Notes: generated by a model not told the origin, from the sequence alone. A DNA stretch of 64,000 nucleotides from an uncultured Pseudomonadales bacterium (GCA_951813515.1 OX638346.1:735617-799616); one strand, 5' to 3'. Counted from the first letter of the stretch, positions 5,498 to 49,348 are shown. Numbers and translations are program-made.

Positions 5498-5512
5498 TGC
5501 TTGTCTCGCCAA

Positions 5513-6370
5513 TCAGCCGGCGAACGCTTCGATGCGTGACCGCCAGGCCAACACTTCTTCGGGCGTGCGCGCGGGCGCAGCCATCGCTGGCGTACGATTC
5601 ACGGGCACGAGTATGCGGTCCGCGTCAATCGTGTCCAGTTCGGACAGGTCCTCAGGGCAACTCAACGTGATTTCCAGCGCATCGGGGTCGCGTCCGGACG
5701 ACTCGGCCGTCTCCCGCGCCAGGCGCACGAGTTCCTGCGGATCGCCCCGCGCGGGAAAGAAGCCCTCGGCCAGGCGGCCGGCGCGTCTCGCCGATGCCTT
5801 CGAGTGGCCGCCGACGTGGATGGGCACCGTACCCCCCACCGGTTGGGGCCGGCAATAGGCGCCGTCGAAGTTGATGAATTCGCCCTGAAACGATGGCCGG
5901 TCCTGCGACCAGAGCGCCCGCATCACCTCGACGTATTCGTCGTTGCGCGCGGCGCGGTCGTTGAACGAGGCGCCGATGGCCTCGAATTCTTCCCTCAGCC
6001 AGCCGACGCCGATGCCGAGCAGGGTGCGGCCGCCGGACATGAAGTCCAGGGTGGCAACCTGCTTGGCGGTGACCACCGGACTGAGCTGCGGCAGGATCAG
6101 AATGCCCGTGCCGAGCTTGATCCTGCTTGTCGCGGCCGCGACATAGGCCATCCAGATCAACGGATCGGGTATCGGAAAGTCGAACCTGCCGCCGCGCATG
6201 CGTCCATCCTCGGAATATGGATACCGGGATACGTGGTTTTCCGGCACCACGGTGTGCTGCACCGTCCAGGCCGACTCGAAACCCGCCTCCTCGGCGGCTT
6301 GCACCAACTCTACGGCGAGCGCCGCGTCCACGTAGCGTCCAGTGTTGCAGTAGCGCAGTCCGAATTTCAT
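5513..6370 (-). CDS. LLM class F420-dependent oxidoreductase (tandem copy 1)
   Basis: 285 aa, MKFGLRYCNTGRYVDAALAVELVQAAEEAGFESAWTVQHTV... It is colinear with, and more than 80% identical by eye to, the downstream copy. Confidence 0.85.
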   Translation of the reverse strand: MKFGLRYCNTGRYVDAALAVELVQAAEEAGFESAWTVQHTVVPENHVSRYPYSEDGRMRGGRFDFPIPDPLIWMAYVAAATSRIKLGTGILILPQLSPVVTAKQVATLDFMSGGRTLLGIGVGWLREEFEAIGASFNDRAARNDEYVEVMRALWSQDRPSFQGEFINFDGAYCRPQPVGGTVPIHVGGHSKASARRAGRLAEGFFPARGDPQELVRLARETAESSGRDPDALEITLSCPEDLSELDTIDADRILVPVNRTPAMAAPARTPEEVLAWRSRIEAFAG

Positions 6371-6427: not shown

Positions 6428-6874
6428 TCAGCCAGCCTTGTCTGCCCTGGTGACTTCCCGGTCCACGAGCGCGCGGCAGAAGTTGCCGATCTCGTCCCGA
6501 ACGCGGCGAAAAACACCCGTGAGTTCACTCTCGCTCATCCAGGAATAGTCCGGGTCCTCGAACGCGCGATGGAGCAGCCGCCGCGCGCCCGGAAAGACCG
6601 GGCAAGTCTCCTTCGCGGTATCGCAAACGGTGACCACGAGGTCGTAGTCCTCCCTCACGTACCTGTCCACATGGTCCGAGGTGTGACCCGAGATATCGAT
6701 GCCGACCTCGGCCATGACGCGGATCGCGAGGGGATGCACGCCCTTCGGGTCCGTACCCGCGCTGTCGACTTCGACACCCGCGCCCCCAAGGTGCCGCAGC
6801 CATCCTTCGGCCATCTGGGAGCGCGCGCGATTCCCGGTGCATATCACCAGGACGCGAAACGCGCGCTCAGCCAT
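6428..6874 (-). CDS. arsC: arsenate reductase, thioredoxin-coupled LMW-PTP type
   Basis: Contains the CX5R P-loop VICTGNRARSQMAEG plus the Cys pair VTVCDTAKETCPVFPG typical of ArsC (C82/C89 equivalents). Confidence 0.75.
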   Translation of the reverse strand: MAERAFRVLVICTGNRARSQMAEGWLRHLGGAGVEVDSAGTDPKGVHPLAIRVMAEVGIDISGHTSDHVDRYVREDYDLVVTVCDTAKETCPVFPGARRLLHRAFEDPDYSWMSESELTGVFRRVRDEIGNFCRALVDREVTRADKAG

Positions 6875-6896
6875 CGGGATAGGGCGAACGCAGACC

Positions 6897-8537
6897 TCAG
6901 GCGAAGCGTGCCGGCGACCGCGAATCCTCCGCTCGCGTCTTGACGTCGATTAGTACCGTCTTGCCGTCCGCATTCAGGCGTTTCGCCTGTTCCAGCGCAG
7001 GCGCCATTTCCGCCGCCTGCGTGACATGGATGCCCTCCGCACCCATCGCCTTGGCAAGGCCGGCATAGTCGCCCTGCATGTGCGAAACGCCGAACTGCTC
7101 GCGCGCCGTCGGGAAACCGCCGGGGTAGGTCGCCATGATGCCGTTGTTGAGCAAGATGGTCGTGATGGGAATGCCCGCGCGGGCCGAGGTCTCGATGTCG
7201 AGGCCGGACATGCCGAAGGCACCGTCGCCCATGAGGTTCACGCACATGCGTTCAGGTGCTGCCATCTTGGCGCCGATCATCAGCGGGATGGAAAAGCCGA
7301 GGTGCGTGGTCTTGCCCCAACCGATGTAGCTGTGCGGCGTCGTCGCGGTATAGAACGGCACGATCTGATCCCGCGGGGCGCCGGCGTCGTGGGTGACGAC
7401 ACTGTTTTCACCGTCCAGCACCTCGTTCATCTCGTGAATGACGCGGTACGGCGACAACGGGCCGTCATCGTTGGTCAGGTAGGGGCGCCACTGGGCGAGC
7501 CATGCCTCGCGTGCTTCGGCGACCCGCGCCTTTGTGCCGTTGTCGCGTCCGTCTTCGCCGATCAGGCCCTTGACGGCATCAATCATGGCTTCGAGCGTTA
7601 ACCTGGCATCGCCGACCAGGCCGATGGCGGCGGCGGTGTCCTTGTTGATCTCCTCGTCGGCGATCACCGAGTGGATGAGGAACTTGTCGCGGGAGAAGCT
7701 CTGGCCATAAGGCGTCCAGGTAAGCGAGGAGCCGACAGCGAACAGCACGTCGCAGTTGTCGAGCCATTGGCGCGCCGGACCCGTTGTCGACGAGACGCCA
7801 GCCCCGACGGACAGCGGATGGCGCTCGTCGATGGCCGACTTGCCCGGCATCGACGTGAATACCGGCACGTCGAGCAACTCGGCCAGGGTCTGCAGTTCTT
7901 CGCAGGCGCCGGCGGTCATGACGCCGGATCCCGCCCAGATCAAGGGCTCTTCGGCGTCGACCAGCTTCTTGGCCGCATCGGCGATCGCCCCGGCGGACGG
8001 CGCATACATGGCGGCCGTCGGTGACGCGTAAGCGGGCGCGCCGTCCGGAATCGGCTGCGAGCAGACATCGGCCGGCATCTCCACGAGCACGGGTCCGGGA
8101 CGACCGGTGCGCAGGGCGTGGAAGGCGCGGCGCATGATATCGCCGGTCTGGTCCGGTCGCATGATGACGTCGACGTGCTTGAGCAACGGTTCCCAAGTCT
8201 TGCCGGCAAAGAAGTTGGGGCGAACGAACAGCTTGTCGAGGGCGTTTCCGCCTGGCAGCAGCATAATCGGTGAGTTGTCCCCGTTCGCCTGGGCCAGGCC
8301 ACCCATCGCATTCTCGGCGCCAGCCTGGGACTGTACCGCAACGATACCGAAACGCTTGCGGTCGGACAGCCTCGAGTAGCCGTCGGCCGCCATCACCGCG
8401 CCGCGTTCGTGACGAAAGGCCACCGGACGGATGCCTTGCTTGGCGACCGCCTCGATCAGCGGGTTGGACGGGAAACAGGACATCCAGGTAACGCCTTCTT
8501 GTTTCAGAATGCTGGCGACGTATTCGACGCTGTTCAT
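6897..8537 (-). CDS. thiamine pyrophosphate-binding enzyme (acetolactate synthase-like)
   Basis: MNSVEYVASILKQEGVTWMSCFPSNPLIEAVAKQGIRPVAFRHERGAVMAADGYSRLS is a TPP_enzyme_N pattern, and the C-terminal region has the GDGAF TPP-binding motif (NLMGDGAFGMSG). Confidence 0.85.
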   Translation of the reverse strand: MNSVEYVASILKQEGVTWMSCFPSNPLIEAVAKQGIRPVAFRHERGAVMAADGYSRLSDRKRFGIVAVQSQAGAENAMGGLAQANGDNSPIMLLPGGNALDKLFVRPNFFAGKTWEPLLKHVDVIMRPDQTGDIMRRAFHALRTGRPGPVLVEMPADVCSQPIPDGAPAYASPTAAMYAPSAGAIADAAKKLVDAEEPLIWAGSGVMTAGACEELQTLAELLDVPVFTSMPGKSAIDERHPLSVGAGVSSTTGPARQWLDNCDVLFAVGSSLTWTPYGQSFSRDKFLIHSVIADEEINKDTAAAIGLVGDARLTLEAMIDAVKGLIGEDGRDNGTKARVAEAREAWLAQWRPYLTNDDGPLSPYRVIHEMNEVLDGENSVVTHDAGAPRDQIVPFYTATTPHSYIGWGKTTHLGFSIPLMIGAKMAAPERMCVNLMGDGAFGMSGLDIETSARAGIPITTILLNNGIMATYPGGFPTAREQFGVSHMQGDYAGLAKAMGAEGIHVTQAAEMAPALEQAKRLNADGKTVLIDVKTRAEDSRSPARFA

Positions 8538-8619
8538 GAAGCGGCTCCGACAATTGACCAAAGCGCCGAATGGTACCCCAGTCGCCGGTTGCAGGTCCGC
8601 AAACGGTTAACATTCGGCC

Positions 8620-10299
8620 ATGATCGAAAGAGGTTCCCGGCGCTTGTCGCAGGCGTCGCCCGCCAGGAAGACGGCGGTCATCGCAGTCTCGTCGTGCTTA
8701 TCCCTGGCCGTAGCGGCAGACCCGTGTAACGCGCGGTTCGGGGAAGAAGCGCTGAAAACGGCCGAAATAGGGGAGATCGAAGGTTGGCCGCTCGAGGCCG
8801 ACGTTCCTTACTCCGTTGCCTCCACCCGCATCGTTCGCCAGCAAATCTTCAATACGGCAGACGCCGCGGAGAATCGGCCGCTGTTCCGCCTCGCGAATCG
8901 CTGGCACGTGAACACGACCGAACGCACGATTCGAACACTGCTGCTGTTCTCGAACGGCGAGACGGTCGATGCCGGCCGCCTCGCGGAAAGCGAACGGCTG
9001 CTGCGCGCGAAGAGGTTTCTTTACGACGCGCGGGTGATCGCGAACCGGGTCTGCGAAGGGACTGTCGACATCGTCGTCGTCACCAGGGACGTCTGGTCGC
9101 TCCTGCCGACGGCGAGCGTCACCCGCACTGGCGGGGAGAATGAATACGACCTCGGCATGTCCGAGCACAACGTCTTCGGCACCGGAATCGAGATCGACGC
9201 GGAAGTGTTCAAGACCCTGGACCGATCCGGCGCGAGCGCGGGTTTCACGAATCCCAACCTGGGCAACAGCCGCGTCGGGCTGGGACTGCGTATCGAGAAC
9301 GCCGATGACGGAGATGGCGCCGTGGCGTTCATCGGCCAGCCGTTCTATGCGCTCGACGCACGGCGGGCCTGGAGTGTCTCCGCCACGGCATCGGAATCCC
9401 GGCGCCGCCTGTACGACGCCGGGCAAGAGATCGCGTCGTTCGGGCTCGACTATCGTCGCGCCGTCCTGTCGCGGGGCTGGTCGAAGGGCCTGGTAGACGG
9501 GTTCGCGAACCGCCTGAGCGCGGGTGTCACCTTGGAAGAATGGAACTTCAAGGATGTCCCAGCGGCGCTGTCAGACCTTGAGAACCGCGAGTTTGCGTTT
9601 CCCTGGATCGCGTTCCAGCGCACCGGCGACGACTTTTCCAGGGTGCGAAACCTGAACCGCGTGCAGACAACGGAGGATGTCTTTCTGGGCCGCCAGTACG
9701 ATCTGCTGCTCGGCTACTCCCCGCGCCAGGGTCACGTGGTCTACAACGCCGCATTCCGGGACGGCCGCAGCATCGGCAGCGAGGCTTCCGACATACTGCT
9801 CTACGGTGCGCAGGTGTCGGGGTTCTGGAACCGGGACAGCGGTGGCGCGGAGAACCTGATCGCCCAGGCATGGACACGCTACCGGCGCGCCCAGACGCCG
9901 AGGTGGGGCCTCTTCATCGACGCCGAAGCGACCATCGCCGACAAGTTGACGCCGGATCAGCAGGTCCTCGCCGGCGGCGACTCCGGGATGCGCGGCTACC
10001 CGAACCGATTCCAGGCCGGCTCGCGTCGGTTCCGCATTACTGCCGAGGAGCGGTACTACTCCGGGCTGTACCTCTGGCGCGTGGTGCGGGTCGCAGGGGC
10101 GGCATTCGTCGACATCGGCAGGGCCTGGGACTCCGCACACGACAACCCGGTGCTGGCCAACGTCGGTTTCGGCTTGCGGTTCGAGTCGACTCGCACCGAC
10201 CGAAGCCGCGTCTATCACATCGACTTCGCGTTCCCGGTGGTGGACGAACCGGGCACGCGGAGCCTGGAAATCACGCTCACGGGCAAGCGCAGTCTTTGA
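8620..10299 (+). CDS. Omp85/BamA-TamA family outer membrane protein
   Basis: Has a POTRA-like region (IRTLLLFSNGETVDAGRLAESERLLRAKRFLYDARVIANR..VDIVVVTRDVWSL) and a C-terminal surface-antigen barrel motif (FGLRFESTRTDRSRVYHIDFAFPV). Confidence 0.65.
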   Translation: MIERGSRRLSQASPARKTAVIAVSSCLSLAVAADPCNARFGEEALKTAEIGEIEGWPLEADVPYSVASTRIVRQQIFNTADAAENRPLFRLANRWHVNTTERTIRTLLLFSNGETVDAGRLAESERLLRAKRFLYDARVIANRVCEGTVDIVVVTRDVWSLLPTASVTRTGGENEYDLGMSEHNVFGTGIEIDAEVFKTLDRSGASAGFTNPNLGNSRVGLGLRIENADDGDGAVAFIGQPFYALDARRAWSVSATASESRRRLYDAGQEIASFGLDYRRAVLSRGWSKGLVDGFANRLSAGVTLEEWNFKDVPAALSDLENREFAFPWIAFQRTGDDFSRVRNLNRVQTTEDVFLGRQYDLLLGYSPRQGHVVYNAAFRDGRSIGSEASDILLYGAQVSGFWNRDSGGAENLIAQAWTRYRRAQTPRWGLFIDAEATIADKLTPDQQVLAGGDSGMRGYPNRFQAGSRRFRITAEERYYSGLYLWRVVRVAGAAFVDIGRAWDSAHDNPVLANVGFGLRFESTRTDRSRVYHIDFAFPVVDEPGTRSLEITLTGKRSL

Positions 10300-10314
10300 G
10301 GCGATGCAGCCCCG

Positions 10315-11577
10315 CTACTTCATTCGATAACGAATCGGCAGGCTCTTGAGGCCGCCCACGAACGTCGACTGCGAGTAGCGCGGCTCGCCGTTAAGTTCGA
10401 CATGCTCGACCCGGCGCAGCAGTTCTTGGAACAGCGCCGACATCTCCATTCTCGCCAGGTGCTGCCCCAAGCAGGCGTGCGCACCGAATCCGAACGCCAG
10501 GTGCCTGACGCCCGGTCGATCCACCCGGAACGCGAACGGGTCGTCGAACACTGCCGAATCGCGGTTCGCCGACGGGTACCAAAGGATGCACGACTCGCCG
10601 GTGGCGATATCGGTGTCGGCCACCCTGCAGTCCGCCGTGGCCGTGCGCATGAAGTGCCGGACCGGAGTCACCCAGCGTACGACTTCGTTGATCGCGTTCG
10701 GCATGTGGCGTTCCGGATCGCCGCGAAGCTTCTCCATCTCTTCAGGGTGTTCGATCAGTGCCAGCAGACCACCGGCGACGGATGAACTGGTGGTGTCGTG
10801 CCCGGCGGTGGCGATGATGATGTAGTAGCCGTTCGTCTCGTGTTCGGGAACGGCCTCTCCGTCGATGCGCGCATTGGCGATCAGGCTGGCGACATCATCG
10901 GTGGGATGGGCGCGCCGGCGCCGGCTCAACTCGGCGAAATACGCCTCGAAGTCCGCTATCACCTCCGGGAGCGCGGTGACTTCGAAGGAACGCCGCGTGT
11001 CCGGGTCGGAGCTGCCGAACATTTCCTGGGTCAGCTTCATCATGAACGGCTCGTCCTGCTCCGGGATGCCGAGGATCGACATGATCACGCGCAGCGGATA
11101 CCAGATCGCGACATCCTTGACGAAGTCGCACTCGCCGCCCAATTCGCCGAGGCGGTCGACGTATTCCGTGGCCAGTTGCTCGATGCGATCCGTCAACACG
11201 AGCAGGTTGGATCGCGAAAACCACTCCTGGGTCAGCGCCCGGTAGCGGCTGTGGTCGGGATCATCCATCGTCACCAGGGAACGAACGAGGTGGCGCCGTC
11301 CGGTAAGCTCCTTGACGATGGCATTCAGGAGTTTGGGCGTGAGGAGCGGGCGCGGATCGTTGACGAACAGGGTCTTGTCGCTTTCGATGGACCGGATGTC
11401 CGCATGCCGCGTGATCGACCAGAAAGGATCGAAGCCGTCCGGCGACATGTGGCGTATCGGCGCGTTCTCGCGCAGCCACGCGAGCTGCGCATTCACCCAA
11501 TCCTCATTCCCCCAATTCGCCGGATTGACGATGGCGGCATCGAGTTCCGGGGATTCGGTAACAACCTGTGATTCCAT
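10315..11577 (-). CDS. cytochrome P450
   Basis: Heme-binding loop FGFGAHACLGQHLARME, I-helix AGHDTTS and EVVRW (ExxR). Start taken at MESQVV. Confidence 0.9.
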   Translation of the reverse strand: MESQVVTESPELDAAIVNPANWGNEDWVNAQLAWLRENAPIRHMSPDGFDPFWSITRHADIRSIESDKTLFVNDPRPLLTPKLLNAIVKELTGRRHLVRSLVTMDDPDHSRYRALTQEWFSRSNLLVLTDRIEQLATEYVDRLGELGGECDFVKDVAIWYPLRVIMSILGIPEQDEPFMMKLTQEMFGSSDPDTRRSFEVTALPEVIADFEAYFAELSRRRRAHPTDDVASLIANARIDGEAVPEHETNGYYIIIATAGHDTTSSSVAGGLLALIEHPEEMEKLRGDPERHMPNAINEVVRWVTPVRHFMRTATADCRVADTDIATGESCILWYPSANRDSAVFDDPFAFRVDRPGVRHLAFGFGAHACLGQHLARMEMSALFQELLRRVEHVELNGEPRYSQSTFVGGLKSLPIRYRMK

Positions 11578-30010: not shown

Positions 30011-30119
30011 GGTTGACGCATCCCAACTGCAACGAGGCAAGAAGACTACAATACCGTTCGGACCGAGGCCGGGCCGGGAGTTCCCCGCCCTGTTGCGCAA
30101 CCGGAGCGTTGCCCATAGG

Positions 30120-30136
30120 ATGTCATAATATGTCAT
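30120..30136. promoter_or_regulatory. AT-rich 17-mer ATGTCATAATATGTCAT (site 1), overlapping the RBS-ATG of speD
   Basis: Identical at 16 of 17 positions to 36239..36255. It lies in the acylphosphatase/speD divergent intergenic region, and the speD ATG (30130) is inside the second half-site. Confidence 0.5.
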
Positions 30137-30528
30137 TGTCCAATAACGCTGGCGGTCGCCATGTCCTGATCGAGTCTTTCGGCGGCCATGCCGGTCTGGA
30201 TGCCCCGGCGCTCAAGCGCCTGCTGCGCCGTGCCGCGCGCGCGGGAGGCGCGAACGTGCTGTCATGCCATATGCACGGGTTCGGAACCGACGGGGGCGTC
30301 ACCGGCGTTGCGTTGCTGGCCGAATCTCACATCACGGTTCACACCTGGCCGGAACGGTCGTACGCGGCATTCGATGTGTTCATGTGCGGCACCTGCAATG
30401 CCGACCGCGCGGCAGAGGAGATCGCGCGCGCGGTACCGGATGCCCGGCTGAGCATTCGCGCCCTGGATCGACCGGCCCCGGAAACTGCGTCGCGACAGCA
30501 TGAGGCAGAGGAGGCAGCGGGTAAATGA
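30130..30528 (+). CDS. speD: S-adenosylmethionine decarboxylase proenzyme (small bacterial class)
   Basis: GRHVLIESFGG...VTGVALLAESHITVHTWPERSYAAFDVFMCG contains the E-S-H self-processing (pyruvoyl-forming) site and the TWPE motif. Confidence 0.85.
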   Translation: MSLSNNAGGRHVLIESFGGHAGLDAPALKRLLRRAARAGGANVLSCHMHGFGTDGGVTGVALLAESHITVHTWPERSYAAFDVFMCGTCNADRAAEEIARAVPDARLSIRALDRPAPETASRQHEAEEAAGK

Positions 30529-31481
30529 CGCGCGTCCCGGCAATGCTCCGTCCCAATGCCCTGGTCGCAGGCGTGCTCTGTGCGGCACTTCTCTCGATCG
30601 CGGGATGCGACAGTGGCGCGGCGGCGCGCGAACGGGCCGAACGCGCGGACGATGAAGTCAAATCGATGCTGTCGCGACTGCGCCAGGATCTCGCGCGAAA
30701 CCGCGTCCCCAACGCGGCCCTGATCCTGTCGTACGCCGACCGGCTCACCCGCGCCAAGCCCGAGCTGAAACCGATTGCCGACGTCTTGCGACGCGAAGGA
30801 ACTACCGACGGCAGGCTGTACCAGGGGCTCACCAAGCGGCTTGAGGAAAACCGCTCCGCATTCCCGCCGCCCGACGCGCCCGCGAAGGCTTACGAACCCA
30901 TCCTCTCGGAATACGCATCGCTACGCGCGGCAGCCGACCCGGAAGAATACAGCCGCGCGCTCAGCGACCCGCTCAATGCTCTCGCCGACTTGTCCGACGG
31001 CAGGCTGCCTCGGGTCGATTCCATCAGCGCCAGCGCCTCGCGCCGCGCCAACGCCGCAGACTCCCAGGGCCCGGGCGGTCAGTTGGTCGGCAATCCCCAT
31101 TATGGCTCCTGGCGCACCGATTCGAGCGGCACCTCGTTCTGGGTCTGGTACGGCCAGTACGCGCTGATCAGCAGCCTCCTCGGAGGTCCCCGCATCGGCT
31201 ACGGCGCCTGGTCCGGCCGGCGCGACTATAGCTACTACCACGACTGGGGACGCGACACCTACACGTCACCGTCGGACAGGCGGCGACAGAACCAGGTCGA
31301 GTCCGGCGCGAGGCGCAAGTTCGCATCGGAAGGCCGGACCTTTCGCAGCCCCTACGTCAGGCAGCGCCAGGGCGCTTCCTCCCGAATCGTCAAACAGAAG
31401 GCATTCGCCAGTGGACGCGGCAGCTTTTCGTCCACGCGCGGATTCGGCGGCGGTTCGCGAGGTCCAATCAGAGGCAAATAG
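30525..31481 (+). CDS. lipoprotein, C-terminal half YjfM/DUF1190-like
   Basis: Lipobox LLSIAG/C. Its ATG overlaps the speD stop (ATGA). The C-terminal TSFWVWYGQYALISSLLGG...RGFGGGSRG recalls E. coli YjfM (SFW..GY..GG, RGGFG...SRSMGG). The family call is from memory only. Confidence 0.6.
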   Translation: MTRVPAMLRPNALVAGVLCAALLSIAGCDSGAAARERAERADDEVKSMLSRLRQDLARNRVPNAALILSYADRLTRAKPELKPIADVLRREGTTDGRLYQGLTKRLEENRSAFPPPDAPAKAYEPILSEYASLRAAADPEEYSRALSDPLNALADLSDGRLPRVDSISASASRRANAADSQGPGGQLVGNPHYGSWRTDSSGTSFWVWYGQYALISSLLGGPRIGYGAWSGRRDYSYYHDWGRDTYTSPSDRRRQNQVESGARRKFASEGRTFRSPYVRQRQGASSRIVKQKAFASGRGSFSSTRGFGGGSRGPIRGK

Positions 31482-31494
31482 AGAGGTCAAGCAA

Positions 31495-32391
31495 ATGTTC
31501 GACTCGGTGAGTATCTGGATCTGGGCCATCGTCGTGCTGGACCTCGTGGTTGCCGTCGTGGCGATATGCGCCCTGCGGTACGTGTCCGGACTGCTGTTCG
31601 GCGTCGATTCGCGGAACGAACTCGCCGAAAAGGACAACCTCGCCTTCGGGCTGACCCTCGCTGGTGGCGCTGGCGCGGTGGCGCTGGTGCTGGCAGCCGC
31701 GACCGCCGGCGACCCCGCTATCGATTTCGCTGAGGAACTTGGCGTGGTCGCGCTCTACGCGGTGCTCGGACTGGTGCTGTTGAAGGTCGGAATGCTCATC
31801 AACGACTGGGTCGTCTTCAACGAGTTCTCCCTGAAGGACGCGATCAACGGCGGCAACGCCGCCGCCGGTACGGCCCAGGCCGCAAACCTGATCGCCATCG
31901 GCGTCCTCGTGAACGCCGCGATCGGCTATTCCGAGGGTGACCTCGCCACCGCCGTGGCGACGGTGGTCATCGTGTTCCTCCTGGCACAGATCGTCCTGCT
32001 CGGGGTCACGCGGCTGCGAGGGCTCATCTACGCGAAACGCAACGAGGGCGCCAAGTGGCAGGCCGCGATCGACGGCGGCAACACGGCGCTTGGGGTCCGC
32101 TATGCCGGGCACCTGATCGGCACCGCCCTTGCGGTGTCCGCGGCGGGTGGAATGATCGTCTACCTGGTGCCGCCTGACGCCGGGATGGTCGCCTTGTACG
32201 CGGCCCTGCTCGGCCTGGCGGTCGTTCTCGCCGGCGTGTTGCTGCTACTGTCGATGCTGGCGCAACGCGCCATCCTGCACGGCATCGATGTCGTCGAGGA
32301 AGTCGACGTTCAGGCGAACATAGGCGTGGCCGCCATCGAAGCCGCGGTGTTCATCGGCGTCGGGCTGGTGATGCATGCGGTCATCGGCTGA
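31495..32391 (+). CDS. DUF350 (YjfL-like) membrane protein with four repeats
   Basis: MFDSVSIWIWAIVVLDLVVAVVAICALRYVSGLL... The acidic-loop/N-x-A-x-G motif occurs four times (ELAEKDNLAFGL, LKDAINGGNAAAG, AIDGGNTALG, EEVDVQANIGVA), each followed by a TM helix. Confidence 0.75.
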   Translation: MFDSVSIWIWAIVVLDLVVAVVAICALRYVSGLLFGVDSRNELAEKDNLAFGLTLAGGAGAVALVLAAATAGDPAIDFAEELGVVALYAVLGLVLLKVGMLINDWVVFNEFSLKDAINGGNAAAGTAQAANLIAIGVLVNAAIGYSEGDLATAVATVVIVFLLAQIVLLGVTRLRGLIYAKRNEGAKWQAAIDGGNTALGVRYAGHLIGTALAVSAAGGMIVYLVPPDAGMVALYAALLGLAVVLAGVLLLLSMLAQRAILHGIDVVEEVDVQANIGVAAIEAAVFIGVGLVMHAVIG

Positions 32392-32485
32392 AACCTGAGA
32401 CATACGCGCGAGGTTCAGCACGGCCGTCAGGCAGTTTCTCGTCGCGAGCGCTGCGCGGGCAAGGATCTCGTCGAGGCCGGGTTGA

Positions 32486-34207
32486 ATGGCTAACGACAGC
32501 GCACGCGTTCGCCGCCACGATACGGTACTGATTGGCGCGATCGGACTGGTCGCCGCCTGCGGACTGGTCTACGAGTACCTCCTAGCGCACTATGCCGGTC
32601 GCATTCTGGGCGCCGTCGAGCCGACGGTGTACGCGATGATCGGCCTGATGATCGTCGCCATGGGGTGCGGCGCGCTGGCCGCCAGATGGATTTCTTCGAT
32701 CTACAGGGGCTTCGCCTGGCTGGAACTGGGGATCGGCATCCTCGGCGGGACGTCCATTCTGCTTCTGTCCGGCGCGGTGGCGCTTGCCTACTCCCTGCCC
32801 GAATGGCTGCGCACGGTCTACAACCTCGACGCTGCCATCGTCGTCGACGGGGGGCTCGCCGCAATGCTGCTCCAGTCAGCGCGCGTACTGCCGTTCGTGG
32901 TCGGGTTCATCATCGGGTTCCTGATCGGCATGGAGATACCGCTGATCGCGCGGGTGCGCGAGCACATCCACCAACGGCGCCTGGAACACAACCTGGGCGC
33001 CATGTACGGTGCCGACTACATCGGGGCGGGCATCGGCGCCGCCATATGGGTCGCGATCTGTCTCAGGATTCCGATCATCTATGCGGCGGTGGGTACCGCC
33101 GCTGTCAACACGCTGGTCGGCATCGCCTTCCTCTCCATCTACCGCCGCCAGTTGCGACCCTCCACGCGCCTCTGGATCGGACACGGACTGCTTGCCGGCC
33201 TACTCGTCGTGCTGGCCGTATTCGGCACCCAGTGGACCACGCGGCTCGGCGACACGCTGTTCCAGGACCGCGTGGTCTACCGGCTGCAGACCCCCTATCA
33301 GAACGCCGTAATCACCAAGCGGCACGTGGCCCGGGGCAAGCCGGACGTGCTCAGCTTGTACCTGAACGGGCGACTGCAGTTCGCGTCCAACGACGAGCGC
33401 ATCTATCACGCCTACCTCACGTCCCCGGCGATGGTGGCCACTTACCGGCGCGAGCGGCTATTGGTCCTCGGCGGCGGCGATGGTCTGGCACTTCGTGACC
33501 TGCTGCGGTGGAATCCGGACTCGGTCACGCTGATCGACATCGATGCCGAAGTCGTCGGCCTGTTCTCCGGCAAGGATCCGAACGCGCCCGCGTGGCTGAG
33601 CCAAACCCTGGTCGAACTCAACGAGGGCGCGTTCGCCGATCCCCGCGTCGTCGTCGTCCAGGCCGACGCCTTCATCGAGGTCGAAAGGCTTGCCGCCGAA
33701 GGCGAGACCTTCGACGTCGTGGTGGTCGACCTGCCGGACCCCGGCCACCCGGACCTGAACCGTCTTTACAGCGACTATTTCTATGCCCGGATCGGCCAGT
33801 TGCTGTCGCCCGACGGTGTGCTCGCCTTGCAGTCGACATCACCGTTCCATGCCAAGTCGGCCTTCCTCTCGATCGGTAAGACGGTCTCGCACGTCGGCTT
33901 CAACACCGAGCAGTTTCACGCCAACGTGCCGAGTTTCGGCGAATGGGGATGGACCATCGGCACCCTGCGCGGGAAACCCGCTTCAGAACGCATTGCCGGC
34001 GCCGAGGCCGGGCCGACGCCGGACGGCTGGCTCGACCGCGAGCAGATCCTGGCCGCATTCGCCTTCCCCAACGGCTACTACGCGGACCTCGACGACGTGC
34101 GGATCAACCGCCTCGGCAGCCACGTCGTCTATGGCTATCACCAGGAAGCGCTGCAGGAATACCGGGGCGTCTTCTTCGCCGGCCGCTCCGGTAACCGACC
34201 GAGGTAG
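32486..34207 (+). CDS. membrane-fused spermidine synthase-like aminopropyltransferase
   Basis: 573 aa. The N-terminal ~230 aa are multi-TM. The C-terminal part has RLLVLGGGDGLALRDLLRW, TLIDIDAEVV and DVVVVDLPDPGHPDLNRLYSDYFY, the spermidine synthase fold motifs. Confidence 0.8.
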   Translation: MANDSARVRRHDTVLIGAIGLVAACGLVYEYLLAHYAGRILGAVEPTVYAMIGLMIVAMGCGALAARWISSIYRGFAWLELGIGILGGTSILLLSGAVALAYSLPEWLRTVYNLDAAIVVDGGLAAMLLQSARVLPFVVGFIIGFLIGMEIPLIARVREHIHQRRLEHNLGAMYGADYIGAGIGAAIWVAICLRIPIIYAAVGTAAVNTLVGIAFLSIYRRQLRPSTRLWIGHGLLAGLLVVLAVFGTQWTTRLGDTLFQDRVVYRLQTPYQNAVITKRHVARGKPDVLSLYLNGRLQFASNDERIYHAYLTSPAMVATYRRERLLVLGGGDGLALRDLLRWNPDSVTLIDIDAEVVGLFSGKDPNAPAWLSQTLVELNEGAFADPRVVVVQADAFIEVERLAAEGETFDVVVVDLPDPGHPDLNRLYSDYFYARIGQLLSPDGVLALQSTSPFHAKSAFLSIGKTVSHVGFNTEQFHANVPSFGEWGWTIGTLRGKPASERIAGAEAGPTPDGWLDREQILAAFAFPNGYYADLDDVRINRLGSHVVYGYHQEALQEYRGVFFAGRSGNRPR

Positions 34208-34214
34208 CCAGCGT

Positions 34215-36017
34215 TCAGGCGATCTCGGCTCTGGCCTCCAGGTCGTCGATGAAACCGAGCGACTGCATGTCGAACAGGCGCCGGTATTGTCCCCGGGGCC
34301 GCGCCATCAGCTCCTCGTGATTCCCCTCTTCCACGATCCGGCCGCTGTCGAAGACGAGGATCCGGTCCACGTTCCGCACCGTCGAGAGGCGGTGCGCCAC
34401 GACGATGGCCGTACGACCTTTCAGAAGGTTGGCGATCGCATCTTGGATCAGGTACTCCGTGATGGAGTCGAGGCTCGAGGTGGCTTCGTCGAGGATCAGG
34501 ATCGGTGCATCGGCGAGGATGGCGCGCGCGATCGCCACGCGCTGCCGCTCGCCGCCGGAGAGCTTGACGCCTCGCTCCCCGACCAGCGTGTCGTATCCTG
34601 CCCCAAGCCTGCCGATGAAATCGTCCGCGTGCGCCTTCTTCGACGCTGCGACCACTTCGTCGAAGGTTGCTTCGGGCCGCCCATACGCGATGTTCTCCCG
34701 TAGCGAGCGGTGAAACAGGATGGGCTCCTGCGGCACCAGGGCGATGCCCCGGCGCAGGCTTTCCTGCGTGACTGCCGCAATGTCCTGTCCATCGACGAGG
34801 ACGCAACCCGTCTCCACGTCGTAGAGACGCTGCAGCAGTTTCACGAACGTGGTCTTGCCGGAACCGGACTCACCGACCAGCGCGACCTTCTCCCCGGCAG
34901 CGATTTCAAGACAGAAGTCGTCAAAGATCGCCTTCGGCTGATTGCTGTACGTGAAACCAACGTTTCGAAATCGAATCGTGCCCGCACCCGGCTGGAAGTC
35001 GGGAGCGTTCAGACGGTTCGATACCTGTGGCGCCGTCTTCGAGATCTTCACAAGATCGTCCAACTCGTTCACCGCCCGCTGCAGGCTGCGGATTTCCCAG
35101 CCGAGTTCGCGCAGATACCCGTTGACGATGAAGTACGCCGTGATGACGTAGACCATGTCGGCCAGCACGGTGGCACCGTCAGCCGCACGACCCAACGCGA
35201 TCGCCAACAGCCCGCCGAGCATCGCGATGATGAGCACCGACTGCACTGCGACCGGATCCATGCTCCGCGTCCACGCCGCACAGGCACGTCGTTGCCAATG
35301 CGAAGACACGTCGTGCAGCAGGCGGTCTTCGCGATGCTCCGCTCCGAATGCCTTGACCACAGAGTTGCAGGTAATCGAATCGGCCAGCGCCCCGCCCATC
35401 TTCGTATCCGCATCGTTCGAAAGCCGGTTTGCTGGAGCCACCCACGACAGGGACATCCATATGCTGACGCCGACGAACAGCGCAACGGAAACCGCGAAGT
35501 AAAGCCCCATCATGGGCTCGCGCAGGAACATCCCGATCGACAGCGCGACGAGCAGGATCAACGTCGGGCCGAGTTGCACGACCACGACATCGGCAAAGTT
35601 GTCGTAGGCCCACATGCCCCGCGTGACCTTGCGCACCGTGGCACCCGCGAACGCGTTCGCATGCCAGTCCGCGCTGAACCGCTGCAGCGCGCGGAAACCA
35701 TCCATGACGATCACCTGCATGGCTTCGGCGGCGAAGTACATCCACACCCGAAAGTACGCCTGTTGCACCAGGGATACGAGGGCCAGGATTCCAAGCAGCC
35801 AGAAAGCCGCGCTCCAGGCCTCAGCAAGGGCAGAGGGACCTTCCCCGATGTGCAACACCGCGGTCACCAGTTCCGCAGACCGGTCGGGAATCTGGACTTC
35901 GAGCAGGATGCTCACCACCACGCCGGCAAGGATCAGCGCGAACTTCGCCGGTTGCTGCCGCCAGTAGCTCCAGACAAAAAGAAAAACCTCGGTAAACGAG
36001 ACCGCTCGGTCGAACAT
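34215..36017 (-). CDS. ABC exporter, fused permease/ATPase (MsbA-like)
   Basis: Walker A GESGSGKTT, signature LSGGERQRVAIARA, Walker B ILILDEATSSLD, and a six-TM N-terminal half. Confidence 0.9.
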   Translation of the reverse strand: MFDRAVSFTEVFLFVWSYWRQQPAKFALILAGVVVSILLEVQIPDRSAELVTAVLHIGEGPSALAEAWSAAFWLLGILALVSLVQQAYFRVWMYFAAEAMQVIVMDGFRALQRFSADWHANAFAGATVRKVTRGMWAYDNFADVVVVQLGPTLILLVALSIGMFLREPMMGLYFAVSVALFVGVSIWMSLSWVAPANRLSNDADTKMGGALADSITCNSVVKAFGAEHREDRLLHDVSSHWQRRACAAWTRSMDPVAVQSVLIIAMLGGLLAIALGRAADGATVLADMVYVITAYFIVNGYLRELGWEIRSLQRAVNELDDLVKISKTAPQVSNRLNAPDFQPGAGTIRFRNVGFTYSNQPKAIFDDFCLEIAAGEKVALVGESGSGKTTFVKLLQRLYDVETGCVLVDGQDIAAVTQESLRRGIALVPQEPILFHRSLRENIAYGRPEATFDEVVAASKKAHADDFIGRLGAGYDTLVGERGVKLSGGERQRVAIARAILADAPILILDEATSSLDSITEYLIQDAIANLLKGRTAIVVAHRLSTVRNVDRILVFDSGRIVEEGNHEELMARPRGQYRRLFDMQSLGFIDDLEARAEIA

Positions 36018-36238
36018 GGGAGCCTCTCCAGTGCCAACATGCCGAGCCGCCGAAAGACCCCCCGCAAGGGGGCTGGCGGAACGAAGCGCGCGATAATGAT
36101 CCTATGGTCCCCAAAGTCAAGGCCGAGTAAGCAAATTTCGCGCACCGATTTGCGGACTCTCGGCAATTCCCGCCTAGCCCGTTGATCGAAGACCCTTCGA
36201 GTGCTTCAGCGAACGCCCGTCCAACTAACGCTTGACCG

Positions 36239-36255
36239 ATGACATAATATGTCAT
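36239..36255. promoter_or_regulatory. AT-rich 17-mer ATGACATAATATGTCAT (site 2), perfect 7-3-7 inverted repeat
   Basis: ATGACAT-aat-ATGTCAT lies in the ABC-exporter/yjfI-like divergent region, 65 nt upstream of the ATG at 36320. Confidence 0.5.
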
Positions 36256-36319
36256 AGTGTGCTTTCGACAGTTACCGCTGTCGGCGGGAACGACCACAAA
36301 GGAAACTGGGAGATACGCG

Positions 36320-36721
36320 ATGACCTTGGACGAGCTGGCCTTCCGGCTGAATGATTTCGACGGCGAGGAAGGCACCACCTTCGATGCGCTCGTGACGGAG
36401 CAAGATATCCTGGAGGTCACCTGCTCGAACAACGACGAATTCCCCATCCACGTCACCCAGACCGAGACGCAGATCCTCGCGGTGACACCCCTTTTCAACA
36501 TTTCCGAAGTCGAGCCCGACAATATCGAGGAGCTCAATGCGATTTTCCTGCGCCTGAGCCCCGCCGTGCCGCTGTCATCCATCGGCTTGCAGGGAGAGAC
36601 CTACATTCTCTTCGGCGCCATGGCGCTGTCGACGCGGTTCGAGGTGATCGCCCACGAACTCGAGGTCCAGGCGGAAAACACCATCGACGTCCTCGAAGCA
36701 GTGGAACACCTGCTGGCCTGA
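36320..36721 (+). CDS. YjfI/DUF2170-like protein
   Basis: EFPIHVTQTETQILAVTPLFNISEV...LNAIFLRLSPAVPLSSIGLQGETYILFGAM fits the remembered DUF2170 pattern. Its position directly before a PspA/IM30 gene matches E. coli yjfI-yjfJ. Confidence 0.6.
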   Translation: MTLDELAFRLNDFDGEEGTTFDALVTEQDILEVTCSNNDEFPIHVTQTETQILAVTPLFNISEVEPDNIEELNAIFLRLSPAVPLSSIGLQGETYILFGAMALSTRFEVIAHELEVQAENTIDVLEAVEHLLA

Positions 36722-36782: not shown

Positions 36783-37478
36783 ATGGGTGTACTGAAAGAC
36801 CTGATGCAGGCCGTGAGAGGAGGCGCCAACGAAGTCGGCGAGGCTATTGTCGACGCCAACGCCATTCGCATTCTCGAACAGGAGATTCGCGACGCCGAGT
36901 CGGCGATAGCCAGCGCAAAGCAGAGCCTGACGCGCATGAAGAGTTCCGAGATTGGCCTCAAGCGGGATCTGTCCACCTTGGGCGCGGACATCGCCGACTA
37001 CGAGCAGAAGGCTATCGCGGCACTCAACGCCGGCGAGGAGGCACTCGCGACCGAGGTCGCCGAGCGCATCGCCGAACTGGAAGGCGAGCGCGACGACAAG
37101 GCCGGCGAACAGGCGGCACTGAACGAGGAGGTCAACAAGATCCACGCCATGATCAAGGCCCGGGAGCGAACCATCCAGAAGAACAAGCGTGAACTGGACA
37201 AGGTGCGAACGGTACAGGAGCTGCAGCGCGCCACGGAAAGCGTCTCGCGCAACTTCGCCGCGACGGGATCGAAGGGACACCGGGTATCCCAGGCGCTCGA
37301 CCGCGTGAAGGCCAAGCAGCAGAACTGGCAGGACCGCATGGAAGCCGGGGAATGGCTGGAGTCGCAGGAAGGTGTCGACGACATCGACGCGAAACTGAAG
37401 GCCAAGGGAATCGGCGCTTCGGGCGCGTCGGCGGGATCGGACGTTCTCGCGCGGCTCAAGGCCAGGCAATCGGGCTGA
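36783..37478 (+). CDS. PspA/IM30 family protein (YjfJ-like)
   Basis: MGVLKDLMQAVRGGANEVGEAIVDANAIRILEQEIRDAESAIASAKQSLTRMK is followed by a long coiled-coil. Confidence 0.85.
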   Translation: MGVLKDLMQAVRGGANEVGEAIVDANAIRILEQEIRDAESAIASAKQSLTRMKSSEIGLKRDLSTLGADIADYEQKAIAALNAGEEALATEVAERIAELEGERDDKAGEQAALNEEVNKIHAMIKARERTIQKNKRELDKVRTVQELQRATESVSRNFAATGSKGHRVSQALDRVKAKQQNWQDRMEAGEWLESQEGVDDIDAKLKAKGIGASGASAGSDVLARLKARQSG

Positions 37479-37485
37479 CCGAGCC

Positions 37486-38133
37486 GTGCTTCGAAAAATA
37501 CTCAGGAGCCGTTTCGGCAAGCGCGACGACGACTCGCCGCGCCAACTGTCCGGTCCGGGCGATCTCGCGGCCGGCGACCTCCTGACGTTCAAGCACCGCC
37601 TGCTCCTGCCGCCGGAGGTCCAGGGACAGACGTTCGAGGTCAGCTCGGTGGGCGCGTATCACTTCGAAGACGGCCTCTACGCCGAACTTACCCTGGACGG
37701 AACCGGCGGAGACCGGGTCTATCTCGGGTTCGACGCCGGTGACGCAAGCCAAATGTCCCTTTCCCGAACGGTGCCCCGTGCCGATGTGTTGCGGCTCTTC
37801 GACGAGGATGCGTTCGCCGCGCTGTGGGACGAAGACTTCGCCCAACTTGAGGTGACCGATCCCCTTCCAAAGTACGAGGGATGGATAGCGGACCGCTACG
37901 CGCAGACGAAGAAGTGGGCCGAGGGCTACTACTACGACCGCGACTGTCGCGGCGAAACGCCATCGCGGCTGCAGGACGACGATGCCGAGGAACTGCGTTG
38001 CCACGAATGCGAGGATGACTCCGGTCGCTATGGCCTCAGCGTCGAGGTCTCGGCGGACGGCGAGACGGAAGTGTTCGCCGAAGTGAACTGCCCGCCGGAC
38101 GTCATCGAGTCGATGTGGCCGGGCCAGGGATGA
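37486..38133 (+). CDS. YjfK/DUF2491-like protein (call mainly by synteny)
   Basis: 215 aa, 8 nt after the pspA-like stop. GDLLTFKHRLLLPPEVQGQTFEVSSVGAYHFEDGLYAELTLDG. The family assignment is tentative. Confidence 0.5.
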   Translation: MLRKILRSRFGKRDDDSPRQLSGPGDLAAGDLLTFKHRLLLPPEVQGQTFEVSSVGAYHFEDGLYAELTLDGTGGDRVYLGFDAGDASQMSLSRTVPRADVLRLFDEDAFAALWDEDFAQLEVTDPLPKYEGWIADRYAQTKKWAEGYYYDRDCRGETPSRLQDDDAEELRCHECEDDSGRYGLSVEVSADGETEVFAEVNCPPDVIESMWPGQG

Positions 38134-38471
38134 GCGCATCTTCGCGTCGCGCCGTCCGCGAACCGAAGCCGGGGCGGTTTCAGGCTGAACGGCAGGCGCT
38201 GCGGAAGATCCAGGTTCACTTCGAGTTCCGCCAGTCGCTGCTGCGCAAGGTCCGCCTCGCCGCGGCGGCGGCGGACCTGAGCTATTCCGACTACGTGAGA
38301 AAACTCGTGGGGCTGCCCTTCTCCAAGATACAGCGCCCGCGCATCAGCCTGTCCTTCAGCGATTCCGACCTCCGCGTCCTCGCAGAGCGTTACGCCAAGC
38401 CGGATGCCGACCCGCAAGCCCTGAAACGTTGCGTGCTGGAAGAGATCGAGTCACAACTGGACGACGCGTAA
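38130..38471 (+). CDS. small protein with two ribbon-helix-helix-like segments
   Basis: Its ATG overlaps the upstream stop (ATGA at 38130..38133). KIQVHFEFRQSLLRKVRLAAAAADLSYSDYVRKLVGL and RISLSFSDSDLRVLAERYAKPDADPQALKRCVLEEI both look like beta-strand/helix/helix units. Confidence 0.55.
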   Translation: MSASSRRAVREPKPGRFQAERQALRKIQVHFEFRQSLLRKVRLAAAAADLSYSDYVRKLVGLPFSKIQRPRISLSFSDSDLRVLAERYAKPDADPQALKRCVLEEIESQLDDA

Positions 38472-38561
38472 GCCATCATCCCGTCGCATTGAAGCACTCG
38501 GCATCGCCCTGATAGTCTCTTCGGCGATGCGACTGTCGCGATAACCCCCTTGCCTGCCCCT

Positions 38562-39653
38562 ATGCTCTGGCGACTCCTGCGCCGACGGCGATACCTGCGC
38601 TACACGCGGTACGTCGCCGGCGCGATCAAGCGGCGCCTGTATCTGACGGCCGCCCTGTTCGCGGGACTGTTCTGCCTGCACGTGGTGGCGATGATCGTGT
38701 TCGAGGACATGACCCCCGGCGATGCCGCGTGGCTCACGATGACCACCGCGACGACGGTCGGCTACGGCGACGCTTCCGCTGTCACAGCCGCCGGGCGATT
38801 GGCCACGGTGGTGTGCATCTATGTCTTCGGAACCTTCCTGCTGGCGCAGATCGCCACGTACATATTCGACTATCGCGCGCTGCAACGGGATCGCCGGCGG
38901 CGCGGGGAAATCAGGTGGAGCAACATGAAAGATCATCTGCTGGTAATCAACGTCCCGGCCCAGGACGCCGAGAACTACCTGCCGCGGCTGGTGGACCACG
39001 TCCGGCGTGCGCCGCGCCTCGGCGACATTCCGATACAGTTGCTGACGCCCGACTTCGAGGACGGCCTGGGCAACGAACTCGTCGATGCCGGCGTCACCCT
39101 GTACCGCGCCATGGCCGAGAACTCCGAGAACCTGGCCGCAGCCAACGTCAGCCACGCGCGCTGCATCATCATCGTCGCCGACGAAATCTACGATGCCCGC
39201 TCGGACGCGCACACGTACGACATCCTCGGCCGCATCCGCGAGTTGGGAACGCAAGCCACCATCGTGGCCGAGGTCGTGGATGACGCAAACCGCCAACGCA
39301 TCCTCGAAGCCGGCGCCACCACCGTGATCCGACCGATCCGCGCCTACCCGGAATTCGTCGTGCGCGCGTTGACCGCGCCCGGCGTCGAACAGGTGCTGGA
39401 AACGATGTTCACCCACGAAGCCGGACGGCTGGCGCGGTTCGACGCGCACTTCGAGGGGCTGCTCTGGCGCGACGTGGTGGTGAGTTTCGCGCGCGGCAAC
39501 GCCGGCATCCCGATGGGCTACTTCGACCAGCGCGGCGTACATACAAACCCCGCCCCGGACGAGGTCTGCAGCGGCCACGGCATCATCACGCTGATCAACG
39601 ACAGCCTCAATGTGACGCCTATGCTTGTGGAGTCGTGCCTGCGGGCGTCCTGA
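38562..39653 (+). CDS. two-TM potassium channel with RCK/TrkA-N domain
   Basis: Selectivity filter TTATTVGYGD, followed by the Rossmann-like region HLLVINVPAQDAENYLPRLV. Confidence 0.85.
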   Translation: MLWRLLRRRRYLRYTRYVAGAIKRRLYLTAALFAGLFCLHVVAMIVFEDMTPGDAAWLTMTTATTVGYGDASAVTAAGRLATVVCIYVFGTFLLAQIATYIFDYRALQRDRRRRGEIRWSNMKDHLLVINVPAQDAENYLPRLVDHVRRAPRLGDIPIQLLTPDFEDGLGNELVDAGVTLYRAMAENSENLAAANVSHARCIIIVADEIYDARSDAHTYDILGRIRELGTQATIVAEVVDDANRQRILEAGATTVIRPIRAYPEFVVRALTAPGVEQVLETMFTHEAGRLARFDAHFEGLLWRDVVVSFARGNAGIPMGYFDQRGVHTNPAPDEVCSGHGIITLINDSLNVTPMLVESCLRAS

Positions 39654-49275: not shown

Positions 49276-49348
49276 ATTGGAATGCCGGAATCGAACCGGC
49301 AACGCCCAGTTCCCTAAACCGGTGCTCTACCTATTGAGCTGATTCCAC
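49276..49348 (-). tRNA. tRNA-like gene, anticodon loop TTAGGGA (reads AGG, nominally Pro), atypical
   Basis: Minus strand: GTGGAAT CA GCTC AATAGGTA GAGC A CCGGT TTAGGGA ACTGG GCGTT GCCGG TTCGATT CCGGC ATTCCAA T. This is a canonical 73-nt cloverleaf with G18G19 and the TTCGA T-loop, but it has C8, a G1.A72 mismatch, A34 and no encoded CCA. Confidence 0.5.

Follow-up and report, generated by a model that had tools for sequence, protein, structure and literature searches.

Why does the same AT-rich 17-mer stand before two separate operons, one headed by the S-adenosylmethionine decarboxylase gene speD and the other comprising yjfI and pspA, in the genome of an uncultured Pseudomonadales bacterium? 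Both copies lie in a stretch of 64,000 nucleotides (GCA_951813515.1 OX638346.1:735617-799616), which is referred to as a whole as the window, and a preliminary description based on its sequence had proposed that a dimeric repressor or activator binds both and couples the two operons. Site 1 reads ATGTCATAATATGTCAT and site 2 reads ATGACATAATATGTCAT (coordinates of all features are collected in Table 1). As described earlier, the two agree at 16 of 17 positions and site 2 is a perfect 7-3-7 inverted repeat, positions and letters being confirmed in the sequence. Site 1 is found in the divergent intergenic region between a minus-strand acylphosphatase gene (real start close to 30010) and speD, while site 2 occupies that between the ABC exporter gene (start 36017, minus strand) and yjfI, at the previously given distances of 65 nt from the yjfI ATG at 36320 and 222 nt from the exporter start. 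The 17-mer pattern ATGWCATAATATGTCAT, searched with up to 3 mismatches, matches in the 64-kb window solely at these two places, the same two that inspection by eye had yielded. By chance 0.05 matches are expected, and the observed count is reached by none of 100 shuffled sequences. The 7-mer half-site by itself is not enriched (8 found, 4.5 expected), so that the paired arrangement is the non-random part. What is conserved among relatives is the central 13 bp, GNCATAWTATGTC, here called the core.

Conservation of the core was followed in loci from 49 species (about 20 kb per genome, 966,952 bases in total), which were gathered by a search with the 113-residue (113-aa) protein encoded late in the yjfI-pspA operon and without use of the motif for selection. 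At the yjfI promoter 48 of 48 species carry a perfect 13-mer GACATAWTATGTC, even at a genomic GC content of 46-51% and where the 113-aa protein shares only 47% identity with that of the window. When these promoters are aligned on the core, information is confined to TTGAC, the core and (A/C)TAnnnT and is approximately zero elsewhere, the flanks having diverged. At the speD promoter the form G[T/C/G]CATAWTATGTC is found in 27 of 32 species, its lone mismatch always falling at core position 2. With up to 2 mismatches allowed, the gathered DNA contains 76 matches to the core, all 76 at the speD or yjfI promoter, and the shorter 9-mer CATAWTATG likewise has 76 copies, every one at these same two promoters. 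Within the DNA covered per genome the motif is neither common and free of positional bias nor lacking upstream of orthologous operons. The earlier proposal that one symmetric DNA-binding regulator ties both operons together is supported by the perfect yjfI cores, the recurrent speD cores, the diverged flanks and this positional specificity.

The sequences around the two cores resemble promoters, and the core is placed differently in each. At yjfI the hexamers are those of a predicted sigma-70-type promoter whose 17-bp spacer is filled by the palindrome. The GG-N10-GC arrangement of a sigma-54 -24/-12 promoter is not found there, TTGAC-17-TAnnnT being present instead, and no gene for an enhancer-binding protein is found in the cluster. 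At speD the core lies downstream of the predicted -10 hexamer, which among relatives takes the forms TAGGAT, TAGAGT, TACCAT, TAGCAT and others, and which in the window ends 8 nt upstream of the speD ATG. The difference in position relative to -35 and -10 points to an operator rather than to an element recognized by the polymerase. A promoter spacer and a transcription start site are classic places for steric repression, and the placement of the two sites favors repression over activation.

At speD the operator also appears to include the start of the gene. In 26 of 27 species the reading frame that begins at the ATG within the core continues without a stop into the AdoMet_dc domain, which upholds the earlier assignment of the ATG inside site 1 as the speD start. 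SpeD begins with Met-Ser in every species carrying the site, and the N-terminal tails vary both in length (8-55 residues) and in sequence. One locus (L042, 3792-3960) encodes a SpeD N-terminal extension with a GGD repeat run, GDGGDGGDGGDG, the tail after Met-Ser varying freely. A Shine-Dalgarno-like tetramer precedes the speD ATG in 8 of 27 species; yjfI and pspA have one in 48 of 48 species each. All eight of the speD tetramers are the AGGA within TAGGAT, and the AGGA that had been taken for a ribosome-binding site in the window is thus better read as part of the -10 hexamer. Because the ATG is in frame in all but one of these species and no Shine-Dalgarno sequence is conserved, the speD mRNA probably has no leader or almost none, and the operator would reach from about -6 to about +7 relative to its predicted 5' end. 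Transcription is predicted to begin at 30128-30130 for speD and at about 36267 for yjfI.

The two sites differ systematically. Core position 2 (30123 and 36242 in the window) is A in 48 of 48 yjfI sites and C, T or G in 27 of 27 speD sites, so the speD operator is consistently the less symmetric of the two, as if a weaker operator had been selected for there. Single variants of the speD site are also seen. Three substitutions inside it (L019 and L040, about 5501-5517) distinguish two loci from the otherwise near-identical L020. L060 (about 3720-3760) lacks the central ATAWT and retains -35, -10 and ATGTC. In L074 (1-110) speD is absent and the ATG of a perfect site, one of the 76 matches, is fused in frame to the lipoprotein gene.

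Directly visible in the sequences are the two sites, the strictness of their conservation, their restriction to the two promoters, the hexamers that resemble promoter elements and the reading frames; from these we infer site binding, repression, the identity of the binder and a leaderless speD mRNA. The explanation that we consider reasonably probable is that both 17-mers are operators of one dedicated transcriptional repressor. At yjfI the perfect palindrome GACATAATATGTC would place this protein between -35 TTGACC and -10 TAGTGT, and at speD a copy with one weakened half-site, GTCATAATATGTC, would place it directly after -10 TAGGAT, so that protein bound at either site would block RNA polymerase and both operons would switch together. 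The binder would be the 113-aa protein, which resembles ribbon-helix-helix (RHH) proteins, and the resulting circuit would be a negative autoregulatory loop that also restrains the operon for polyamine and aminopropyl transfer. Taken by itself, the conclusion that the two sites form a shared operator is very probable; that the RHH-like protein binds them and acts as the repressor is reasonably probable.

The 113-aa protein is the sole candidate DNA-binding protein conserved in the cluster. It had been named as one protein to be tested on the sites, and it turns out to be RHH-like by sub-threshold Pfam matches, AlphaFold2 modeling and Foldseek comparison. Its chain can be divided into two units, the first with a KIQVHFEF strand at 26-33 followed by helices 35-47 and 52-59 and the second with RISLSFS at 71-77 followed by helices 78-87 and 95-111, and polar and hydrophobic residues alternate in both putative strands. 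Close homologues carry no annotation. A full profile search gives about 115 representatives at 50% clustering in which both halves are conserved, with Q28, R57, R69 and R71 nearly invariant. Among 35 family members, 21 match RHH_10 (best E 4e-5); further sub-threshold Pfam matches are to CopG_antitoxin and, for distant members, to NikA-like, FitA-like_RHH and RHH_1 (E 5e-4 to 5e-3). A first AlphaFold2 model from a shallow alignment (predicted local distance difference test score, pLDDT, of 72) gave uninformative Foldseek scores. With a deeper alignment the model reaches a pLDDT of 87.9 and its Foldseek list consists mostly of RHH proteins (AtaR, TacA, ParG, Arc, NikA, CopG, MatP, CdbA and PutA). 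One unit superimposes on CopG, Arc and NikA with a root-mean-square deviation (rmsd) of 1.0-1.5 Å over about 36 residues and target-normalized template modeling (TM) scores of 0.64-0.80, the values for CopG and Arc being about 1 Å over 36 residues and 0.75-0.80. From the model and these comparisons, an RHH fold is likely.

The association of motif and gene extends beyond the close relatives. The RHH gene is present in every motif-bearing cluster that is long enough to check. An RHH homologue of 35% identity (P0248) is encoded on a contig of 47% GC (L085) in a minimal DUF2170-PspA-RHH unit located between unrelated genes. The promoter of this unit, TTGACAaattCCATAATATGTCCCATAATATGTCATAA, contains two tandem 12-bp copies of the motif (CCATAATATGTC), the second of which provides a CATAAT -10 box 17 bp from -35 TTGACA. 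The contigs of two other distant homologues (P0315 and P0253) end short of the promoter; a plasmid search with a distant RHH homologue gave no match. The motif is absent from two yjfI-pspA clusters without an RHH gene, yjfIJKLMC of E. coli K-12 and that of a P. syringae plasmid. As judged from these promoters, the motif travels with the RHH gene. The region upstream of yjfI on the P. syringae plasmid (pPma4326F; L090, about 5600-5760) carries another palindrome in repeated copies, CATGTAAGG...CCTTACATG and a partial third one, and this points to a different regulator there.

A metagenome scan for the combined promoter-plus-operator design reached further loci. Four of its 10 matches are the same cluster with its RHH gene. 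A site on a high-GC metagenome contig (L078, 11300-11324, minus strand), TTGACG-tga-GACATAATATGTC-ATACTCT, is located about 120 nt upstream of an ABC-2 ATPase gene (10212-11180) and a gene for a 1167-aa Golvesin_C membrane protein (6665-10168). No RHH or PspA genes are found on this contig, which may hold a third member of the regulon or an independent parallel case in another taxon.

Several observations weigh against this explanation. For the fold, the Foldseek E-values are 0.5-8, all RHH Pfam matches fall below their gathering scores, and searches of PDB sequences with both family profiles give nothing significant (NikA at E 0.33). DSSP assigns no β-strand in the monomer model, and hhalign of the two halves of the protein detects no repeat signal. 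For the operator, the speD site is lost or degraded in 5 of 32 species, the clusters without an RHH gene that serve as controls number two and are both distant, and three other matches of the metagenome scan are Firmicutes prophage-like contigs on which GACATAWTATGTC lies beside an 80-aa HTH_3 (Xre-type helix-turn-helix, HTH) repressor. On these low-GC contigs the 13-mer (L080, 2430-2490; L077, 7720-7780; L081, 1180-1240) often occurs in two copies about 35 bp apart, and a fourth such match of the scan, L084 (348-372), has the identical 13-mer between HigB-like and HigA-like genes. In addition, regulon members or a distant regulator gene outside the gathered loci would escape detection, and the host organisms are all known only as metagenome-assembled genomes; binding, transcription start and repression are predictions.

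The same palindrome evidently serves another protein family, and since an HTH protein can evidently read it, the main competitor of the RHH protein for the role of binder is a regulator whose gene lies elsewhere. The operators would then be real and would couple the operons, with an Xre/HTH_3 or other HTH protein bound to them and the RHH-like protein serving some other target or role. This is possible but on balance doubtful. It draws on the identical 13-mers that accompany HTH_3 repressors in prophage-like and HigBA loci unrelated to the cluster, on the sub-threshold statistics of the RHH fold and on the limited span inspected in each genome. However, across the 49 species the cluster neither contains nor adjoins a conserved HTH gene. 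For HTH_3 in particular, none is found in or adjoining the cluster in the window and its relatives, the remainder of each genome not having been searched. The motif moreover accompanies the RHH gene even in the minimal three-gene unit, at 35% identity and in another genomic context, and a set of just one or two sites per genome, each exactly invariant, is what a dedicated regulator acting locally typically leaves. It is not what a global regulator would produce, and to our knowledge none of the Zur, Fur, NrdR, Lrp, PadR and LexA boxes matches the core.

The motif might instead be read by RNA polymerase itself, as an unusual or extended -10 element or one for an alternative sigma factor, since the core holds the -10-like hexamers CATAAT and TAATAT and the second repeat of L085 sets CATAAT exactly 17 bp from TTGACA. 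This is improbable. The core takes different positions relative to the conserved hexamers of yjfI and speD, on which ground a promoter element was rejected for the Azotimanducaceae, the family to which the related genomes are assigned. At yjfI, CATAAT is only 5-6 bp from the -35 hexamer, and the conserved two-fold symmetry is something that promoter elements do not need.

Slightly more improbable still is a role of the speD site in the mRNA, as initiation context or small hairpin, with the similarity at yjfI being secondary. Such a role had been entertained in the preliminary description, and the site does take in both the start codon and the Ser codon that follows. Initiation on leaderless mRNAs is favored by an AT-rich 5' end. 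However, there is no Rfam match near either site at E up to 1, and the speD 5' end folds no more stably than shuffled sequence (z = +0.63); an RNA element was rejected on these two grounds. Conservation extends to the left part, G-N-CATAWT, which is non-coding, the yjfI core lies upstream of the predicted transcription start, and the 12 of 13 bases common to both sites in 27 species need a common reader.

A chance match, or a site left behind by a dispersed repeat, a mobile element or the operator of a toxin-antitoxin system, can be set aside as having a negligible probability: a Phd/YefM-ParE cassette does lie beside site 2 in some conspecific strains, but it is upstream of the site, which is present with or without it, neither the window nor the 967 kb of related DNA holds further copies, and the core is strict across 48 species. 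The cassette itself (window about 36171-36177; L001, 2236-2866) is inserted in L001, L005, L008 and L009 and absent from the window, L003, L004 and L007, the operator being intact in both forms. A toxin-antitoxin operator or insertion scar and a dispersed repeat were rejected accordingly.

The two operons that the repressor would join are, by comparison among relatives, parts of a single ancestral cluster. A complete genome entered as 'MAG: Pseudomonadales bacterium' (OY764266.1) contains nearly the same sequence as the window, and related genomes carry the label Candidatus Azotimanducaceae (Pseudomonadales). In most related species speD, the lipoprotein, DUF350, speE, yjfI, pspA, 215-aa and 113-aa genes are contiguous, often with the K+ channel gene after them. 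The ABC exporter gene is confined to near relatives of the window, yjfI following speE directly in more distant ones, and in L032 (7165-7266) only a C-terminal remnant of the exporter gene remains. The second operator-bearing promoter precedes yjfI even where the genes are contiguous. No Pfam match was obtained for the lipoprotein-like protein or for the window copy of the 215-aa protein, whose DUF4178 label comes solely from a faint match in the L025 orthologue. The K+ channel gene overlaps the RHH gene in some relatives (L023) and is possibly co-transcribed with it. The only Rfam match at the gathering threshold in the whole window is a tRNA gene (49276-49348, minus strand).

Table 1. Positions of the predicted operators, promoter hexamers and genes, counted from the first nucleotide of the window
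Feature	Position (strand)	Basis and remarks
Predicted -35 hexamer TTGCGC, speD promoter	30093..30098 (+)	TTGNNN 17-18 bp upstream of TAnnnT in 24/27 species; predicted from sequence
Predicted -10 hexamer TAGGAT, speD promoter	30116..30121 (+)	TAnnnT ends 0-3 nt before the core in 27/27 species
Site 1 17-mer, predicted operator	30120..30136 (+)	Core 30122-30134, GTCATAATATGTC; spans the predicted transcription start and the speD ATG at 30130
speD, S-adenosylmethionine decarboxylase	30130..30528 (+)	Pfam AdoMet_dc, E 5e-26
Lipoprotein-like protein, second gene of speD operon	30525..31481 (+)	N-terminus ...LLSIAGC; syntenic in all relatives
DUF350 (YjfL-family) multi-pass membrane protein	31495..32391 (+)	Pfam DUF350, E 2.5e-39; gene call from conspecific contig
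Membrane-fused polyamine aminopropyltransferase (spermidine/spermine synthase)	32486..34207 (+)	Pfam Spermine_synth, E 7e-29; NCBIfam PRK03612, E 7e-167
ABC exporter, separates the two operons	34215..36017 (-)	
Predicted -35 hexamer TTGACC, yjfI promoter	36232..36237 (+)	TTGAC 3-4 nt before the core in nearly all of 48 species
Site 2 17-mer, predicted operator	36239..36255 (+)	Core 36241-36253, GACATAATATGTC; occupies the promoter spacer
Predicted -10 hexamer TAGTGT, yjfI promoter	36255..36260 (+)	Conserved (A/C)TAnnnT directly after the core, 17 bp from -35
yjfI-like gene, DUF2170, CesT/Tir-like chaperone family	36320..36721 (+)	Pfam DUF2170, E 5e-24
PspA/IM30-family protein (YjfJ-like)	36783..37478 (+)	Pfam PspA_IM30, E 5e-37
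Conserved 215-aa protein, DUF4178-like member of the operon class	37486..38133 (+)	Syntenic in all relatives
113-aa RHH-like protein, candidate repressor	38130..38471 (+)	Two beta-alpha-alpha units; last regulatory gene of the yjfI-pspA operon
K+ channel, Ion_trans_2 / TrkA_N	38550..39653 (+)	Gene calls, Pfam, open reading frame; usually after the RHH gene

A neighborhood link between PspA and polyamine enzymes had been noted before, without a regulator, signal or mechanism. The present analysis supplies an exact operator, two predicted promoters (one probably leaderless with its start codon inside the operator) and a named candidate repressor, which opens the link to gel-shift and reporter work in a heterologous host though all carriers are uncultured. 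The speD gene moreover shows clearly how an operator can constrain a coding sequence. How such a repressor might be released is a matter of conjecture. PspA holds PspF in E. coli, and by analogy the RHH protein, which has no sensor domain of its own, might be captured and released under membrane stress by the PspA-like protein or the CesT-like YjfI, an idea that we regard as unlikely in its specific form. Were it true, membrane stress would directly turn on the PspA module together with a membrane-anchored pathway of polyamine and aminopropyl transfer, and the presumably weaker speD operator, in which position 2 is never A, would decide which of the two operons responds first.

The proposed arrangement has counterparts among known systems. 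Arc and Mnt of phage P22, CopG of pMV158 and MetJ autoregulate through operators that overlap their promoters, and the system proposed for the window resembles them in pairing a small beta-alpha-alpha protein with short symmetric or repeated subsites in a promoter. It differs in that the 113-aa chain appears to hold two units, in the sub-threshold level of the similarity and in the operator sequence. Two RHH-like units per chain are also known from TraY of the F plasmid and AvtR of an archaeal lipothrixvirus, both weak Foldseek matches of the first model. Those proteins, however, act in conjugation or viral regulation and show no significant similarity to the 113-aa protein, in which hhalign finds no internal repeat. 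The Xre/HTH_3 contigs (L077, L080 and L081) and the HigB/HigA locus (L084) share the identical 13-mer, again after TTGAC in a promoter. In contrast to the window their regulator is of the HTH_3 type, and organisms and genes are unrelated, so the shared 13-mer is most simply taken as convergence on a simple palindrome. For the start of speD, a parallel is the leaderless cI mRNA that phage lambda makes from P_RM; judged by its sequence, speD likewise has its start codon at or near the predicted transcription start and no Shine-Dalgarno sequence, whereas only in speD is the start codon itself part of the operator.

Control of a PspA-family membrane-stress operon is also the subject of the PspF/sigma-54 system of E. 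coli pspABCDE and of work on the P. aeruginosa bac operon. For bac, a yjfI-pspA-like operon, a sigma-54 promoter has been proposed, and BacA (DUF2170) has been proposed to control its own operon negatively (Wallart et al., 2024; PMC10948618). The window differs in its promoters, which look sigma-70-type, in having no enhancer-binding protein nearby and in its palindromic operator. Closest in gene content is the CesT/Tir(DUF2170)-PspA-spermine-synthase operon class (Ravi et al., 2024, mSystems; PMC11237479), exemplified by SO_3765 of Shewanella oneidensis, whose final gene is in some cases an RHH transcription factor, an annotation reached there independently of the present one, and whose 'novel lipoprotein (Ctha_1186)' corresponds to the second gene of the speD operon. 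Gene set and order (lipoprotein, DUF350, 7TM-spermine synthase, DUF2170, PspA, DUF4178 and, variably, RHH) agree with this class by synteny across the 49 species. The PMC11237479 passages at hand describe no binding site or promoter for it, and literature searches with the motif string and the Shewanella locus tags did not find the operator or the two-promoter wiring. Compared with the class as those passages present it, the window cluster has speD at its head and two promoters each with an operator, and in the genus of the window the minus-strand ABC exporter gene splits the cluster, in contrast to the single contiguous operon of six to seven genes that characterizes the class. The object is of an ordinary kind, a repressor operator common to two promoters, and both the operon class and its RHH gene had been described beforehand; the apparently new elements are the operator sequence, the two-promoter wiring, the probably leaderless speD with its start codon in the operator, and the pairing of protein and site.

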